A DNA stretch of 62,877 nt, filler included, from Dimargaris cristalligena (Eukaryota), in the NCBI GenBank assembly GCA_003614675.1. It is 3 parts of 3 records of this genome, joined end to end, with 100 filler letters (N's around TTAATTAATTAA, not from the genome) between each part and the next. Parts side by side here need not be neighbours in the genome. Positions count along the whole stretch, not along the records: positions 42,011 to 62,877 come from ML002685.1; 2 more parts are not named here. The stretch is one strand, 5' to 3'. Position numbers and translations under genes: made by a program. The first letter of the stretch is position 1. Every line of letters starts with the position of its first letter. The notes under the pieces are model-generated. The model was not told the origin of the DNA and searched no databases. It saw only the letters and a program-made list of their open reading frames with translations. Of the stretch, positions 14,501 to 62,877 are shown in pieces.

Positions 14501-14911
14501 TACATTCACCAGCCTAAAAGTCAAGTCCATCTATTCCTCTCTCTATCCCGTAATACACACCTGCTTTTCCTAATAATGGGCTACTCTTCGCCGTTCCTAA
14601 CCCCGCTCTACTATCTGACTGCACTCAACTAAACCAACCATTTTCCCCGTCAAATTTTAACGATCCGTATTTAGCTAATATTGGCAAGTGCCCCTATTGT
14701 ACCTATCCATCCCACCCAGGCCATCGCGGGTTTAAATACCACCCCCCCCGCCGTGTTTCAGATAACCGCAACGTCTACCTTTTCCCCTATCCTGTTTTCC
14801 TTCCCCCAGAGGTCGTTTTCCAAATTTCAAGTCCAAGTATCTACGGTCACCGATTTTGCTCAGTAGGCCTTGTGTTTCTGATTATACCTACCCGCTCATC
14901 CCTTGGTCACC

Positions 14912-16469
14912 ATGCGAGTATCCGTCCTTTTTGGCTTGTATCCTCTGGCCCTGTTGGGCCCGATGGTATCTGCCATGCCGAGTAATCCAATGGACAGGTT
15001 TCCTATAGAGCTTCAACAAGAGGTGTTTGGCCATTTACCCCCACTTAGCAAGCTAATGGCCACGAACGTGAACCAAGAGTGGCGGGACATTATTTTGAAT
15101 GACCAGAGAGTCCGTAATGCCAAGGTAAATAAGAACTACACGGCTGATTATAGTAGTTTTTTATTTAGTGCTTAATGATATTAGTTCTCTCAGTGCTACC
15201 ACATCTATTGGATTGCATAATTAAACCTGCGATAGTCTTAGCCAGGCACCATGTTCCTATAGCCAACCCCCCCCCCCCCCCGTCTGGCTACCTCCTATTA
15301 TATAGTGTTTTATTAATTTGAGCTAATGCTAATACCGTAAATCATCATTCCATTCGTAGGCTATGGATGTGTTCATGTCCAACCCTGCTATCTACCCGGC
15401 CGAGGGCTCCAACCGTGCTACCCTGGACAGCAAACCTGGGAATCTTGGCCCCCTTTTTGACAACCTTATGCGCTCAATAGTGGTCAAGATGGTTTACCGC
15501 CATTTGAATCAACTTGGATTCGATGCACTAGGCAACCCCATATCTAATCCGACTCGACCTACCGCCCGACTTGCTTTAAACCCCAAGGTCCCGGAAGCTA
15601 TTAAAGCCTTCAAGCCCGAGCTCGAATGGCTCCATGCGAATCTCATTTCCATCCAAGTGGACGACAGGTCGAACGATATCGTCAACGCCTACTTCCCTGT
15701 CATCAACACCATTCACATAGGTGATTTGACCCACCTTGAGCCATTGGTAAATTACATGTGCACCGATGATTTTGCCCCGACGATGGGTCGCACCCTGGCG
15801 AACTGGATGCCTGAAAGCTATGTCAATTTCTTGAACATTTTAATGTTTGGCACTCAACCTAGGACCGAACCCATATCCGAAGTCACCCACATGGAGCAGC
15901 AGCGAGATATATATTTACCCGAGAATATCAAGCGTGATCTCCGTGTCACATTGATTCAGGCTACCACCTATCTAGCCACCCAGTCGGGTAATTTGCAACG
16001 ACTTAAGGAGATGGCTCAAGCCACGAGCCCATTTGAATTGAACACGGGCAGGGCGAATCCCAATAGTTTGGCCAGATATGATCGAAACATGGCCGCATTG
16101 ACCGCCATTCTTCAAGCCAACGCTCTGCTGGCCGAAGAGATATTAGCCATGCAGCCCCCAACCCTACCCCGACAGGTACTGGGCTACTGTGCCATTAAAA
16201 TGGGGTTCACTACCGAGGAGCATCTCCCCCAAGACTGGCAAAACCCTTCAGAGGAACAATTGAATCAAGCGCTCCCCATTAGATCGATGGTTGGTGATAT
16301 GGCCTGCGCCAGCGAATTGTACGGTTTGGCCACACCTATGATTTTGGGAAAGGACGGAAAGATCTCCCTGCTTTATTATCCTCTGAACGATCATCCGGTG
16401 GCATTGGCTATTCCCACTGGCTTGTCGACCGAGGCTGACATTGATAGACCCCTAAACCCTGCAGATTAA
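14912..16469 (+). CDS. Predicted secreted F-box protein, ~440 aa; exons 14912-15124, 15360-16469
   Basis: Signal peptide MRVSVLFGLYPLALLGPMVSA; F-box consensus MDRFPIELQQEVFGHLPPLSKLMATNVNQEWRDII; phase-0 intron AAG|gtaaat...cgtag|GCT joins the 368-aa ORF in frame. Confidence 0.8.
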
Positions 16470-20912: not shown

Positions 20913-21012
20913 NNNNNNNNNNNNNNNNNNNNNNNNNNNNNNNNNNNNNNNNNNNNTTAATTAATTAANNNNNNNNNNNNNNNNNNNNNNNNNNNNNNNN
21001 NNNNNNNNNNNN
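20913..21012. other. Assembly linker (N44-TTAATTAATTAA-N44)
   Basis: Exactly 100 bp with a six-frame stop spacer; identical to the linker at 41911. Confidence 0.98.
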
Positions 21013-54428: not shown

Positions 54429-57013
54429 ATGGCGGCCAAGAATCCGGTATTAAACCCGGCTGCTTCCGGCTCGATGGATGAATCCCGATTCCAGGACATG
54501 GTGCTCAAGGTAAGTCTAATGCCTACTCTTGACAACTTTTCAAACGACACAGAGCGCATATTTATATATATATAATATCCTTTACGCATACTCAAAGTAT
54601 ACTTAGCCAATAAAAGCACACTCACCATTATTTACCTATCCCCTCTACTGGGCTTATTTGTGACTCCGGAATCGACTTAAATCTAACAGTTGGCTTTATC
54701 CCTATATAACATTACTTACTCCCGCAAATAGTTCCAAGAGCGAATTGAAAATCTCCAGGAAGAGAATAGCCAGCTATTAGAAGACCAAGCCAATAAAACC
54801 AAGGTGAGTGGCGGATATACCGATTTAGTAGTGGGTTGTACTCGAAAACATCGGTTGGCAGGTTAACCGCGGGCTAATACTCAATCGTGCAATACGGGAA
54901 ACTAATCTATTGCCTCTTCAATGTAATACCCCCCTGTGTATTCCTAAAATACCTCCTATACATCGGTACCCTCTTTCAGAAAATCCGGTTTTTCCAACAG
55001 GAGGTGTTCGACTCCCGCCAGCAGTATAGCCGGATGGAAAACGAATTCTTCCTCAAAGCCACAGAAATTGAGAAGATCCAGAAGGAAATGGGTAACCTCA
55101 CTCGGGTTCGCCGTGATCTGGCCGACCGTCTTCGGAAGGAGACCCTGCAGTTTGAAAAGGAACGCCAGGAATGGCAGGACCGGGAACTGGAATTGAGCGG
55201 ACAGATCAAACGCCAGGCTTTTGACCGCCGACGATTCACCGTCTCGGGTCCACCCAAGAACCAAGCAGCGACTAATGAGCGGGTGCTGGATGTTTTAGCC
55301 GAAGCCACGGGGGATTCCGGCGACCCACTCCCGAGTAGCGGCGCCTCTTCCCTCACCGATATGGACCGCGATCGCCAGTCGGCCATCCATAGCCGCACCA
55401 TCCGGGCCCAGGATAAACTCGTGCAAGAGCTGCGGGGGGATGTGACTAACCTACAAAGGGGGAAGGTCCAACTCCAGGAGTATCTGGACCAACAGGCGCT
55501 CCGGGTACTGCAACTCGAGAACGAAGCCGGTCAGCTCCGCCAAGTCAACCAATCTCTAATGGAGGACAACGAGTCGTACCAACGGCTGCTACACGAGAAG
55601 ACCATGGACGGCAGCTTTAACTTGGGCGCCTTGGGGTACGACCACTCCAACAGCCAGGACGGTTTGGCCAACCTTGCCGCCGAACTCAGCCCCACGGACC
55701 AAGGCCCAGGATCCCCTGGCCTCTACCCCCAGAGTGCGGGACTGGGTATGGACTTGGCTGCCGAACTGGACCGGGCCTTCATCACTTCTCCGGTCCCAGA
55801 CGATCACCACATTAAGCAACTCAAGCAAAAGGACGATAAGATCGATAAGCTCAAGGCCGATATTAAAAATCTAGAGAAGGAGGTCAAGTCGCACAAGGAC
55901 GAAAGTAAGGCACTTAGCCTGTATATTAACAAGATTCTGAGCCGCATCATGAACAGTGGTATGCTACAGCAGGTTCTGGCCCAGGATTACGCGGGCTCCC
56001 GTAGTCCACCCACTGCGGCCGGGGTGCCTGCCGATCCTACTCCCGACATCCCTGTTGCTGACCATCCTTCAGGCTCGGCTTCAGCGGGCCCTGGTATGGG
56101 CCGGGCTCGCGCCGTCACCATGGCCGATAGGAACACCCCTCGGAATAATTACCTGAGTGGTGACGACGATGACGACGAAGACGACGGCCTGGACGCCATG
56201 ACACGGGCGGCCCGGACCGCGGCCCGCATTCGGGCCCAGAAGGAACAACGGCGCATGTCCGTGGATCAATCCAAGCTACTGGGGACAACCGCCGGAGCCT
56301 CCACCACTGGTGGACCCCCCCAGCTAACCCAGCGACCGGGCCGCTCCAATACTGTAGCCGGCCACCGACCACCCGCCATTCAAACGCAGCGCCAGGAAGG
56401 GGGCGGCGGCCAGGGGTTCCGCTCCGTATTTTCCCTCCTATCGCCCCGGGCCCCACCGCCCCCACCCAGCACCACAGGTGAGAACCCCCCTCCATCGCCG
56501 CCCCCGCCTCCACCTAAGTTTACCCACATGACCCCCGAGACGGCCGCTGCCTCATGGGGCCGCACCATAGAAGAGGACGACGAAACAGACCACGTCGCCA
56601 CGGGAGGGGCTGCGGCGGAGCGGGCTGACGATGTCTTCCACAGCAATCGCCATTCTTCCACTTCCTCATCATACAATCGGGCGTCGATTCAACGACGGGC
56701 AACCACTATTATGTTCACCAGTCCAAAGCCGGAACAGGCTGCTCTTGCAGCTGGATCCAACAACGAGGGGCTATCCGAAGGGTCTTTTGTGGGCGGGAAC
56801 GGACATAGTAATGGAAGTGGCGAAGTGAGCGACTCTCCTCGCCAGCGCCAAATGCGCCGGCATAATTCAGTCAGTACACCCAACCAGCCCCGCATCGATG
56901 CTATACGACAGGGGGACGGCGGTATGGTGGGATCGGATAATAACCCCGACAATTCCTCGGGCTGGAAAGCGGCCTGGAAACGGATGAGCTCGGCGTCACC
57001 CTGGAAGTCTTAG
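54429..57013 (+). CDS. Long coiled-coil protein with Rab11-FIP3/4-like segment, ~728 aa; exons 54429-54509, 54732-54803, 54980-57013
   Basis: Two phase-0 GT..AG introns; heptad-rich N-half; LRQVNQSLMEDNE...LAAEL...ALSLYINKILSRIM; disordered Pro/Ser-rich tail. Gene structure is solid, family call is tentative. Confidence 0.8.
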
Positions 57014-57933: not shown

Positions 57934-59966
57934 TTAGTTTGGTGCTATATTATTCCAGTGCTGAATTCGGTCCTGAACCGACCCGCCGGCGGGGTTGGGT
58001 AAATTGGCTGGCCGGGGAGGCTCTACCCCGTCGCTTACGGGCTTCGGCCCGTTGGACGAAGAGGAGGATACCAGCGCCGCCTGCGCCCGGGCCGCTCTGG
58101 CTAGTTGCAAATCAATTAGCCATTGGGGTTGCTTGGACTGGGTCACCACTGGAAGGGTTGGTGGGGTTGTGGTAGAGACGGAGGTGAAGGGGCCCATGGT
58201 GGCAGGGTCTGAACTATTAGGAGTCAAGTTCATACGGTTTCCAAGTCCGGAAGAGCCGGCGAGAGCCGAGGGGTGTCTAGCCGTCGAAGTAGAAGTGGTG
58301 GTGGTGGTGGTTAAATAGCTGGAGTAGTTTAATTGGCTCACTGGTTTGGCCCAGGGCGCCGGTGCTGGTCCGTTGACCAGTTTGCGGTATTTTTTTAAGG
58401 CATCTTCTTGGGTGAATAGGGTTGGATCAGTCACCATATAGTAGAGGTCCTTCGGTTGGGACTCGTTGGTAAAGGTGTAATCGCCAGGCTGTCCAAGTAT
58501 ATGTTTAGGAAAAGGGGCGAGCAAATTGACAAAGTCCAGGGGATCCAGGGGATTCTGGTAGCCTTGGCGATCAAACCAGTCGAGGGCCCGTTTCGCGATA
58601 CTCGAAGCCTCAAGTTCATTAGGTATCGTAGGTTTCACGGCTGGGCGCAGGAGGGCGGCCGCTTCGTAGCGCTTCCACTGCAGGGCCATGAGGAAAAGGC
58701 CCAACATCTCCAGGGCATCCCACGTACGCGCCTCCAAAGCGCGGACCGAATTCTCATTCTGGATAGCAGCGTCCAACAGCAAAAATTCGTCCAGGGCAAT
58801 CACGTCATTGACCAGAATAGCCGCGCGGATACAGTCGGTCAGAATCATAAACCCCGTCACTTCGGCAATTTTGTCTGCTTCCCCCTCGCCGAGATTAAAG
58901 CCATCGGCCAGGGATTGCCACCGGGCGTGGGCAATATCCACGGCAAGGCCACTTCGGCCTTCGTACACGAGCAGGGGGGAGAGGAACTGGAGGCGAATAT
59001 CGTCGTCTTCGAGGTCCGGGATGGGGATAATCTTTTTGGTAATAAAGGCCTTAGTGTCCGTCCGGCCAGTCGAGTCGAACTGTTGGGTAGGGACAAAAAA
59101 TTGCCAGTCGAAACAGTAAATCAGTTGTATCATTTTATCCAGGGGCCCGGTCTGAAGGAGCTTACGCAGGGACTCGTAGACTTTGGAATCCTGGACTCGG
59201 CTCAGGTATTGTCCAAACACCGCTTCGGACTGGGCGAGGCCATGGACGAGGTTTCGCCGTTGATAGAAAGTTGCAGATACGATGGCAAGTATAGAGGCAG
59301 ACGGTCCGAATAAGGGTTTTAAAAATAAGTACATACAAAAGAGGAGGCGGTTGAGAGGATTGCCATTAAATAGTCCAGAAATACTAGGTAATGAACCAAG
59401 TATGGTCCAACATGAGCCGGACAGGTTTTTAGCATCGAAACCATTTTCCTCCTCCAATCTTAAGACCAGATAATAGCCCAGAGCCACTGGTCAAACCGAA
59501 CCCTTTACCCATCCTCCGTTAAATTTCATGAACAGCTGGCTCTCCCTCTCTGGCCTGGAAAGTAACCCCTAATTTTTACCTCTACAATAAGTTCTTCCTC
59601 CTTTTCCGTGCGATTGTTGCGGTCGAGACTTATCACCTGCGGTAGCCTTAAGAGTTCTATAACCGGTGCAAGAACGTCGGGGAGGTTAAGCGTGTCTACA
59701 GGAAATGCGTATTGGTCACCGTACTCCAATAAGCCGACTTCATCATCGTTGGCCACCTCGGAACCGGCATAGAAAACCCCGCTCGAAAAGGGGCGGCCAT
59801 TCGAATCCGAAAGCGCTTCATCATAGGATGGCAACGCCTTCCCTTCGTTATAGCTGGGGGGATCCACGGAATAGGCGGGGGGCGGAGGCGTTTCACCAGT
59901 AGTGCGCAAAGCACCCTGCAATACCCAAAGGCTAATTAGCCAGATACCGTAGGTGTATTTGGCCAT
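57934..59966 (-). CDS. Predicted secreted orphan protein with three N-terminal PY motifs; simplest model exons 59966-59580 and 59229-57934 (splice sites uncertain)
   Basis: Hydrophobic N-terminus MAKYTYGIWLISLWVLQGALRTTG followed by PPAY, PPSY, LPSY; donor GAG|gtaaaa and an in-frame acceptor cccag|TCC; long downstream ORF with coding-like composition. Confidence 0.7.
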
Positions 59967-61010: not shown

Positions 61011-62877
61011 TGTTGGAAATTCATTTCCCCCGTCCCACTGATTCCATCTCTGTGATTGGCTCGTCCTATACTTGGGACTTTACTATAGCCGTTACTATAT
61101 CATCCTATAACTGGAACTTCGTCCTAATCGTTATTACTGCTATTATTCAATTCAATAAAACCAACCATGGGCATCTAGCTTTGCCCCTTGCAGTTCTTTC
61201 TCTCTTCTTTGAATTGTTTTAGTTGTATCTGAAGGCACTTGCATTTACCATCAAACTTATATTTCCAACAGGTTATGAGCCCTGGTGTGTTTCAAATAAA
61301 CTAATCGTTTATACCTCAATCACAATATTCATTTACTATCCATCTACCAAACTGGATACTCATCTATCTACATTTCATTTTGAAATTCATTTATCTAACT
61401 ATCCATCTATTCATCCATCCATCCCTTTCAAGTATCAATCTACCTTACAACCTACTCTTACAATGAGTTCTAAACTTTCTAAACTTAACATCCAACCCCG
61501 TCAGTTTGATGGTGATAACTACACTGCTTGGGCCCTATCTATGCGCCTATACCTGCAATCATCTGATCTTTGGGAGATTGTAGAAGATGGTTACAAACCA
61601 ACCACCACTGATGATCCTAAAGGGAAAGCCTTAAACAAGCAGTACCTGAAGGATGATTAAATGGCTTCATTTATGCTCCATGCATCCATGAATGACCAGT
61701 ATGCGGACTCCCTCGATGGCAAACTGACGGCCAAAGAAATCTGGAAAACAATGGTGAATCGCTTCGCCAAACCACCTACGGCCAAAGTCCTAACTCTATA
61801 CTCTAAGTTATATTGAATCCATCAGGGAAACCAATCCATCTGTCAACTGGCCATGAAGATTCAATCTCTCAATGCGGAACTCAAGAAATACGACCTTACG
61901 AGTGACTAACAACTGACTCTCCTATTTCTACAGGCAGTGGATGAAAGATTCCACTTGACAGTCAGCCAATGGCATACCCGGGACCTGGACTCTTTTGTTT
62001 TCGACAGTGTAGTTCAATCATTTATCGAGGCAGAACAATTCCTGGCCAATCGGGAGGCGACACCGAAAACAATGTTCGAGTCCGCCATGACTGTAAAAAC
62101 TAACCCGGGCAAGTTTAAAGGTAAGAAGGGTAAGAGTAAGGGGGTTAAAAACACACAAAAAGAGGGTGATACCTCATACTGTGCTATTCATAAAACTAGT
62201 GGACACTCCACTGATGAATGTTTTCGAAACCCCCTGCATAAAGGGAAAAAGGAAAGCCAGGCTGAACAAGCCCAGCTAGTACTTAAAATTCCTGAACATG
62301 CACTCAAAGTGAAGGATGGCAAATATCCGAAGTCAACTTGGTTTATTGACTCGGGTGCATCCTACCACTATTGCCCTGATCGTACTTTATTTGATAATTA
62401 TGTACAAGAAACTCGCCATTTAATATTGGCAGATGGAAAAGAGTTATCAATCTTGGGTTATGGGACAGTCAAGCTTGACATCCTAGATCCATCCAATAAT
62501 ACTCGCTGATTAACCCTATATAATGTGGGCCACTGCCCCACTTTGGGTTATAATCTACTTTCTGTACCAGCCAGTGATGAGAGGGGAATTAAATTCACCT
62601 TCCATCAAGGCCGTTGTACCATTCAAGAGGGGAATACTCCCCTTCTCCAAGTCAACAAAATACACTCTTCATACCCTTTTTCAGTTAAATATCCTCATAC
62701 TTCAATGGCAAATTTAGCTATTGAAATTCCTAAACCTCCTTCCCTTTTGGAGGTCCATTATTCTCTTGGCCATATTAATTTCGATACCCTCAAGCAGGCT
62801 GCTAAAAATGGCATCATAAATGTTGACCAAAATTCTCTTTCTGATTATTTTAATTGTGAAGTTTGTATTTCAAACAA
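61011..62877 (+). mobile_element. Ty1/copia LTR retrotransposon, 5' part (LTR 61011-61270, PBS 61271-61282), runs off the window
   Basis: 260-bp LTR with perfect 10-bp inverted termini TGTTGGAAAT/ATTTCCAACA; PBS GGTTATGAGCCC; gag-protease-integrase order. Confidence 0.96.
61463..62877 (+). pseudogene. Copia gag-pol pseudogene with four in-frame stops and no frameshift
   Basis: FDGDNYTAW..LQSSDLWEIV (gag), TAKEIW, zinc knuckle CAIHKTSGHSTDEC, protease WFIDSGASYH, integrase N-terminal HYSLGH..CEVC, all in one frame interrupted by TAA/TGA. Confidence 0.93.

Follow-up and report, generated by a model that had tools for sequence, protein, structure and literature searches.

Rsp5 is the fungal ligase that governs nutrient transporters and endocytosis, and several groups of described proteins resemble in part the one encoded at the locus reported here. 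NDFIP1, NDFIP2 and yeast Bsd2 (PF10176) carry three tandem PY motifs in a disordered N-terminal segment, as does our protein, and its motif order, PPxY, PPSY, LPSY, agrees with that given for NDFIP1 (PPPY, PPSY, LPSY) in the text of PMC11355008. Alpha-arrestins (ARTs) are soluble two-module proteins that pair a substrate-binding domain with PY motifs, and for them ligase activation is expected only upon membrane recruitment (text of PMC5892558). In that account by Mund and Pelham, soluble proteins with several PY motifs bind Nedd4-family ligases but do not activate them until they are tethered, clustered or polymerised. PY-motif mimicry of Nedd4 adaptors by viruses is established: the herpesvirus PPxY proteins HSV UL56, VZV ORF0, HCMV UL42 and HHV-6/7 U24 are described as binding and redirecting host Nedd4-family ligases (texts of PMC5849660 and PMC11998485), and viral late domains count among such adaptor mimics as well (text of PMC10159163). 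A secreted protein of Toxoplasma, GRA35, recruits host ITCH at the host interface via the C2 domain of ITCH (texts of PMC10936166 and PMC13370926).

The organism studied here belongs to the Dimargaritales, haustorial mycoparasites mainly of Mucoromycotina (text of PMC6899921), and Cokeromyces recurvatus serves as the culture host for another Dimargaris species (text of PMC3734964); by these two accounts the haustoria of the parasite develop in Mucorales. The text of PMC9866270 deals with proteases, secondary metabolites and CAZymes, and the literature searched gave no protein-delivery route across the Dimargaris haustorium. Nor did that literature, largely open-access main texts, yield a fungal effector with PY motifs; published secretome tables could already include these genes as secreted. 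The family described below is real and conserved and, within that scope, undescribed.

The window, meaning the whole stretch of Dimargaris cristalligena DNA that was analysed (62,877 nucleotides), consists of three contigs end to end (C475, a second contig and C478), with N runs at 20913-21012 and 41911-42010 marking the joins. In C478 lies a gene, here called the PY gene, with the following structure and upstream neighbour:

59580..59966, minus strand: exon 1 of the PY gene, 129 codons for a signal-peptide-like N-terminus, the PY linker and the first helices of the core
59230..59579, minus strand: intron, 350 nt, phase 0, GTAAAA...CAG
57934..59229, minus strand: exon 2 of the PY gene, 431 codons plus stop
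61463..62877, plus strand: Ty1/copia remnant with DUF4219, Pol_BBD and gag_pre-integrase matches and in-frame stops, cut by the contig end

The reading frame opens with the ATG at 59966, and joining the donor GTAAAA at 59579 to the exon that follows the CAG acceptor preceding 59229 gives a 560-aa product. The deposited protein RKP36273.1 is the identical 560-aa product with the same splice, a model that may itself derive from prediction alone. A GTAA donor and an AG acceptor stand at aligned phase-0 positions in all five genomic copies of the gene, around introns of 282-350 nt whose sequence is unconserved and whose G+C is below that of exon 1. Furthermore, in the AlphaFold model a single confident helix (121-140) spans the exon junction. 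The initial annotation had warned that exon 1 might not be joined to the downstream ORF; the shared intron, the deposited protein and the helix across the junction all indicate that it is, and a two-exon gene making a 560-aa protein is well supported by the sequence. The donor of the PY gene is weaker than the GTAAG of its paralogs, a search of the final 110 nt of its intron by eye showed no canonical branch point, and the deposited models of the paralogs splice differently. The intron also holds a donor-like GTATGT at 59336, with 87 open codons ahead of the acceptor. An additional internal exon, or a different acceptor, that would bring in a hydrophobic stretch was considered and rejected: the middle frame is not opened by any usable phase-0 acceptor, the stretch is unconserved, and in two paralogs the acceptor TAG is an in-frame stop. 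The Ty1/copia remnant lies 1.5 kb upstream of the ATG. Converging on the PY gene is a plus-strand gene at 54878-57013; its coiled-coil product weakly matches Rab11-binding FIP (E 0.059) and has a tail rich in proline.

The PY protein shares with Rsp5/Nedd4 adaptors its [LP]PxY motifs, which are conserved and predicted to be accessible, and its two-module layout is a motif array plus an interaction scaffold. The spacing between motifs 2 and 3 is, we presume, also alike between the NDFIP/Bsd2 proteins and this one. Unlike them, however, the PY protein lacks the PF10176 domain with its three membrane spans, has no membrane span elsewhere and no sequence homology to them, and it carries a signal-peptide-like start in front of the motifs and a soluble helical solenoid behind. 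It differs from the alpha-arrestins in its all-helical core, its N-terminal PY motifs and, again, its signal-peptide-like start. The herpesvirus adaptors are membrane proteins made inside the host cell, whereas the PY protein would need secretion and then entry into another fungus; its folded domain is large, and it lacks a membrane span. GRA35, in contrast, is a vacuole-membrane protein, and the text of PMC10936166 mentions no PPxY or PY motif in it.

The motifs PPPPAY, DPPSY and LPSYDEAL, which the initial annotation had placed within residues 27-52, are confirmed, the segment 59966-59811 of the minus strand encoding residues 1-52. The linker contains the following sites:

59871..59882, minus strand: PY motif 1, PPAY (29-32) within PPPPAY (27-32), the least conserved site
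59850..59861, minus strand: PY motif 2, PPSY (36-39) within DPPSY (35-39), aligned with PPGY and PPEY in two of four paralogs
59811..59834, minus strand: PY motif 3, LPSY (45-48) with an acidic, helix-forming flank to residue 52 (LPSYDEAL, 45-52)
59721..59732, minus strand: decayed fourth site, LLEY (79-82); LPEY, LPTY, VPEY and LPKY in the paralogs

Three [LP]PxY motifs in a 65-residue linker were rare among 20,000 composition-keeping shuffles (p = 5e-5), and the background in 89 long ORFs was 17 such motifs in 42,021 residues (0.4 per 1000), with no triple. Because the shuffle test was picked after the motifs had been seen, we give more weight to conservation. Across the genome, DNA patterns for two or three motifs, which ignore frame, occur at control level (180 vs 184; 37 vs 35; 83 vs 257). 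Among 30 of the 37 triple-motif matches that were read, four lay in one stop-free frame, and only that of the PY gene stood behind a signal-like ATG start, as judged by eye. The pattern of LPSY plus acidic residues had 10 matches in the genome against 4 for the control; this form also occurs in two other PY proteins of the organism and in its own Bsd2, which has LPSY plus acidic and PPY and is encoded by a separate gene. One of the two other proteins is GRAM-like (E 0.09 for GRAM) and has a pair of PY motifs; the second is a protein encoded at L159:208-1395 (+, contig C936), which has LPSY plus acidic and PPAY near its N-terminus, a hydrophobic span near its C-terminus and no Pfam match, and is a candidate endogenous Rsp5 adaptor.

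The genome contains five copies of the gene, on contigs C478 (the PY gene), C870, C82, C1467 and C1483, each matching both gene halves side by side. A sixth member, P0004, 64% identical, is recorded for another assembly and was not found in the one analysed. The linkers of the five copies hold 3, 3, 2, 3 and 2 PxY sites, of which 3, 2, 2, 1 and 2 are strict [LP]PxY; three strict motifs are thus found only in the C478 copy, the paralogs having 2, 2, 1 and 2. When exon 1 is aligned, all five copies agree at P46, Y48 and Y82; the fourth site keeps its tyrosine throughout and its proline in four of five. Between distant copies silent sites are saturated (pS 0.74-0.83) and pN is lower (exon 1, 0.40-0.54; core, 0.31-0.46); that the PxY sites are conserved in spite of this saturation indicates that they are being kept. 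The sequence comparison indicates that exon 1 is coding and under purifying selection.

Two of the copies are irregular. The C870 copy (L013:3720-4091, minus strand) has three PxY sites in an open frame and lacks a signal peptide, its N-terminus being polar in two assemblies; the DNA upstream has a short hydrophobic frame without an ATG, which may be a decayed signal peptide. This copy adjoins an XRN2-like gene, and one deposited model fuses both. In the C1483 copy (L016) the reading frame is broken by shifts towards the close of exon 1 and within exon 2; this copy is either a pseudogene or an assembly error.

Residues 1-88 have pLDDT <50 in the full-length AlphaFold model, and since this segment is modelled as disordered, the motifs are likely to be accessible. 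A complex prediction of linker residues 22-92 with WW1-3 of Cokeromyces Rsp5 scored 0.01 (mark 0.34), a run that used no alignments and had a disordered partner, so that its score weighs neither for nor against binding. The PxY sites might also be kept for a reason other than Rsp5: they may bind a different WW protein or another reader of proline, serve as tyrosine sites for sorting or phosphorylation, or belong to an extracellular protein with some other ligand. Constant across the sites are P-x-Y and an acidic flank: at 12 of the 13 the tyrosine is followed by D or E one, two or three residues on (by eye; the exception is one LPTY). The leading residue of the motif is V or S at three of the 13. 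LPSYDEAL might also be read as a tyrosine-based sorting signal. However, the other 10 sites fit the strict [LP]PxY form, the flanks match those of the organism's own PY proteins, and five of the 11 WW matches found in the genome belong to its two Rsp5 paralogs (L143:388-3027, plus strand, and L142:58-2295, minus strand, the second with two WW matches only). We consider a non-Rsp5 reason distinctly unlikely.

Behind the linker the protein consists of a folded core and a low-complexity tail:

58372..59229, minus strand: helical solenoid core, exon-2 part, residues 130-415; the domain begins at residue 90 in exon 1 (59699-59580)
57937..58371, minus strand: Ser/Thr/Pro low-complexity tail, residues 416-560, with two short helical motifs, 498-517 and 547-557

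The core modelled alone reached pTM 0.76 (AlphaFold, 7 alignment rows), and pLDDT is 70-87 across most of 90-390. The model is a helical solenoid with flexible loops, all-helical except for three short strands. An arrestin beta-sandwich is absent, in keeping with the all-helical model and with no arrestin Pfam match, and no catalytic fold was found in the model or the fold searches. In agreement with the initial annotation, which saw no later transmembrane span, the best 19-residue Kyte-Doolittle window is 1.68 (257-275); D, R and D are among its residues, and in the model it forms one of the helices of the solenoid. Fold searches returned nothing more specific than generic alpha-solenoids (the best at Z 8.7, with rmsd 4.5 and 176 aligned), and the ankyrin leads in Atlas were all <0.9. 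A Pfam search of the full protein gave no match, the tail likewise, and the protein has no PF10176 domain, the genome's one PF10176 gene (Bsd2) lying elsewhere. Pfam, PDB sequences (one tag artefact), Foldseek, VIA and Atlas revealed no named family or fold, and such blanks are no proof of a new fold. The only relatives in a word search were three D. cristalligena proteins, and a profile search of 1.84 billion representatives found seven proteins, six of them from D. cristalligena; the seventh, a shark WxxW-repeat protein, was rejected as a short-word artefact. None of 166 pattern matches in metagenome contigs was confirmed. As judged from these searches, the PY family is species-confined, divergent and multigene, without known domains.

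The tail contains a P-x-W-L-I-x-L-Q-x-x-R helix and a terminal V-x-x-x-I-x-x-aromatic helix (58125-58066 and 57978-57946, minus strand), both of which recur in P0004 and in the copy on C870, while the one on C82 terminates in polyproline. The two motifs may resemble actin-associated linear motifs.

A secreted protein that binds host Rsp5 need not be an adaptor. The array might be a WW decoy that blocks host adaptors and so stabilises haustorial nutrient transporters, or it might control only the ubiquitination, sorting or turnover of the effector itself while the solenoid does the work. The solubility of the PY protein suits this explanation, since soluble multi-PY proteins bind without activating (PMC5892558) and no membrane span is available as a tether, and several herpesvirus PY proteins are described as relocalising and depleting Itch (text of PMC5849660). 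A pure decoy, however, has no need for a conserved 325-residue folded domain, and the core is more conserved than the linker (dN 0.40-0.71 vs 0.57-0.97). Such non-adaptor roles seem to us rather unlikely.

Residues 93-107 looked F-box-like, which prompted a search of the genome with PF12937; this gave 65 matches at E up to 1. At least 35 of the 64 matches read, picked by eye, belong to genes in which a signal-like N-terminus beginning with Met is followed by a linker and then a degenerate F-box (loci L087, L091-L093, L098-L105, L109-L111, L113, L114, L117, L118, L120-L127, L129-L132, L137, L139 and L140). One signal-peptide F-box gene lies in the window:

14909-15172, plus strand: signal-peptide and F-box gene, its F-box above the Pfam cut-off

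In 28 of the 35 a phase-0 donor follows 2-20 codons past the F-box match, and most then have a second frame of 250-450 codons; the second exons fall into 11 clusters. Since the Skp1 on which an F-box acts is cytosolic or nuclear, a signal peptide ahead of an F-box is sensible mainly in a protein that enters another cell. These genes are candidate SCF-hijacking effectors on the basis of their predicted layout, and with 35 of 64 matches in them, secreted ubiquitin-ligase adaptors look like a strategy of the parasite. No account of secreted F-box proteins in Dimargaris was found in the literature searched, largely open-access main texts.

The PY gene resembles this set in its signal-like start, low-complexity linker, L-x-x-L-P helical segment, phase-0 intron and second exon of ~300-420 aa. 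It differs in that the PY family fails both the Pfam F-box and the genome F-box profile, and that the linkers of the 35 F-box genes are nearly without PY motifs: they hold one [LP]PxY in 1,095 residues, which marks PY arrays as special to the PY family. An F-box at residues 90-129 of the PY protein is unsupported: the segment has no Pfam F-box match, does worse than shuffled sequences against a profile made from 34 of the genome's F-boxes, gives an hhalign probability of 3%, and is modelled as the first helices of the solenoid. It is possible that it is a decayed F-box remnant. The core showed no homology to the second exons of 10 of the 11 clusters. The second exon of one gene, L099 (contig C654; 1411-1767 and 467-1345, minus strand), is colinear with the core along its whole length, with 222 aligned columns of which 21% are identical (E 0.011). 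This likeness, z 3.2-3.9 vs shuffles, is the best of 33 and was chosen after the fact; its global alignment score dropped from 16.9 to 0.5 upon trimming, and L099 has no close relative to deepen the profile. As a borderline lead from sequence, L099 may be a remote relative of the PY family core. On this basis one could imagine the PY family as a ligase-switched branch of a secreted adaptor arsenal, in which the F-box decayed, a PY array arose in the linker, and a similar helical target-binding domain came to recruit host Rsp5 instead of SCF, a history that we regard as doubtful.

The N-terminus of the PY protein bears on whether it is secreted at all:

59910..59966, minus strand: putative signal peptide, residues 1 to ~19, n/h/c layout by eye, cleavage site not fixed

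The initial annotation called a predicted signal peptide here, and the evidence is mixed. The n/h/c layout is present, and the 9-residue hydrophobicity of 2.44 falls in the range of the 35 signal-peptide F-box genes (1.49-3.03). Similar N-termini occur in three of the four paralogs, so that four of five copies have a basic or neutral n-region, a hydrophobic stretch of 10-12 residues and no acidic residue before position 25-27, with 9-residue hydrophobicity of 1.72-2.44. In contrast, an improvised profile built from the 35 N-termini of this genome scores the PY protein at -0.8 and the paralogs at 0.3, 2.3 and 2.1, against 0.7-36.2 (median 6.9) for held-out members and a 99th percentile of 3.4 for internal windows; this profile, crude and family-biased, gives the signal peptide no support.

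That poor score would suit a protein that is not secreted and acts as an adaptor of the parasite's own Rsp5 ligases, its N-terminal helix being an uncleaved membrane tether on the cytosolic side. Such a tether would provide what PY arrays require for activation (PMC5892558), and the two Rsp5 paralogs in the genome, the C870 paralog without the N-terminal segment and the presence of only two cysteines in the PY protein point the same way. However, the hydrophobic stretch is too short and polar for the membrane anchor that the initial annotation had named as the competing possibility: the 19-residue window is 0.94 in the PY protein, too low for an anchor, and 0.94-1.54 across the four copies, and the paralogs have small-residue, cleavage-like sites after the stretch. 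A housekeeping adaptor like Bsd2 is conserved and can be recognised, whereas the PY family is confined to one species, and its exon layout is common to the signal-peptide F-box genes. An own-Rsp5 adaptor thus appears improbable to us.

We hypothesize that the PY protein is a secreted, lineage-specific effector, an adaptor that recruits host Rsp5 after its solenoid has engaged a host target, and we hold this tentatively, at a little short of an even chance. The two-exon gene would give the 560-aa protein, which its N-terminal signal peptide would direct into the secretory route and to the haustorium; entry into the cytosol of the host mould would follow, as the many signal-peptide F-box genes suggest. 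After cleavage, the disordered N-terminus could offer three or four PY motifs to host Rsp5, which in Mucorales has three WW domains, a docking step suggested by motif form, spacing, disorder and conservation. The solenoid would then bind a host protein or membrane complex, so that the array is tethered and clustered and the ligase is switched on beside the target, which would be ubiquitinated and removed or re-sorted. The earlier proposal of a secreted adaptor mimic steering host Rsp5 stands in part. It is made plausible by the haustorial lifestyle, the motifs conserved under silent-site saturation and the many signal-peptide F-box genes; against it, soluble multi-PY proteins do not activate untethered, and one paralog lacks a signal peptide. 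Because of this behaviour of soluble PY proteins (PMC5892558), the adaptor model needs the solenoid or tail to be docked on a membrane or polymer.

The molecular control of host fungi by biotrophic mycoparasites is almost unknown, and a secreted Rsp5-docking protein would supply a concrete mechanism for it, one that is testable in baker's yeast because the WW domains of Rsp5 are highly conserved. If the ligase switch were true, the PY protein would be the first fungal effector mimicking an Rsp5 adaptor and a natural case of degrader re-wiring between E3 classes. The dozens of signal-peptide F-box genes suggest, in turn, a large-scale hijack of host ubiquitination by proteins that cross the haustorium.
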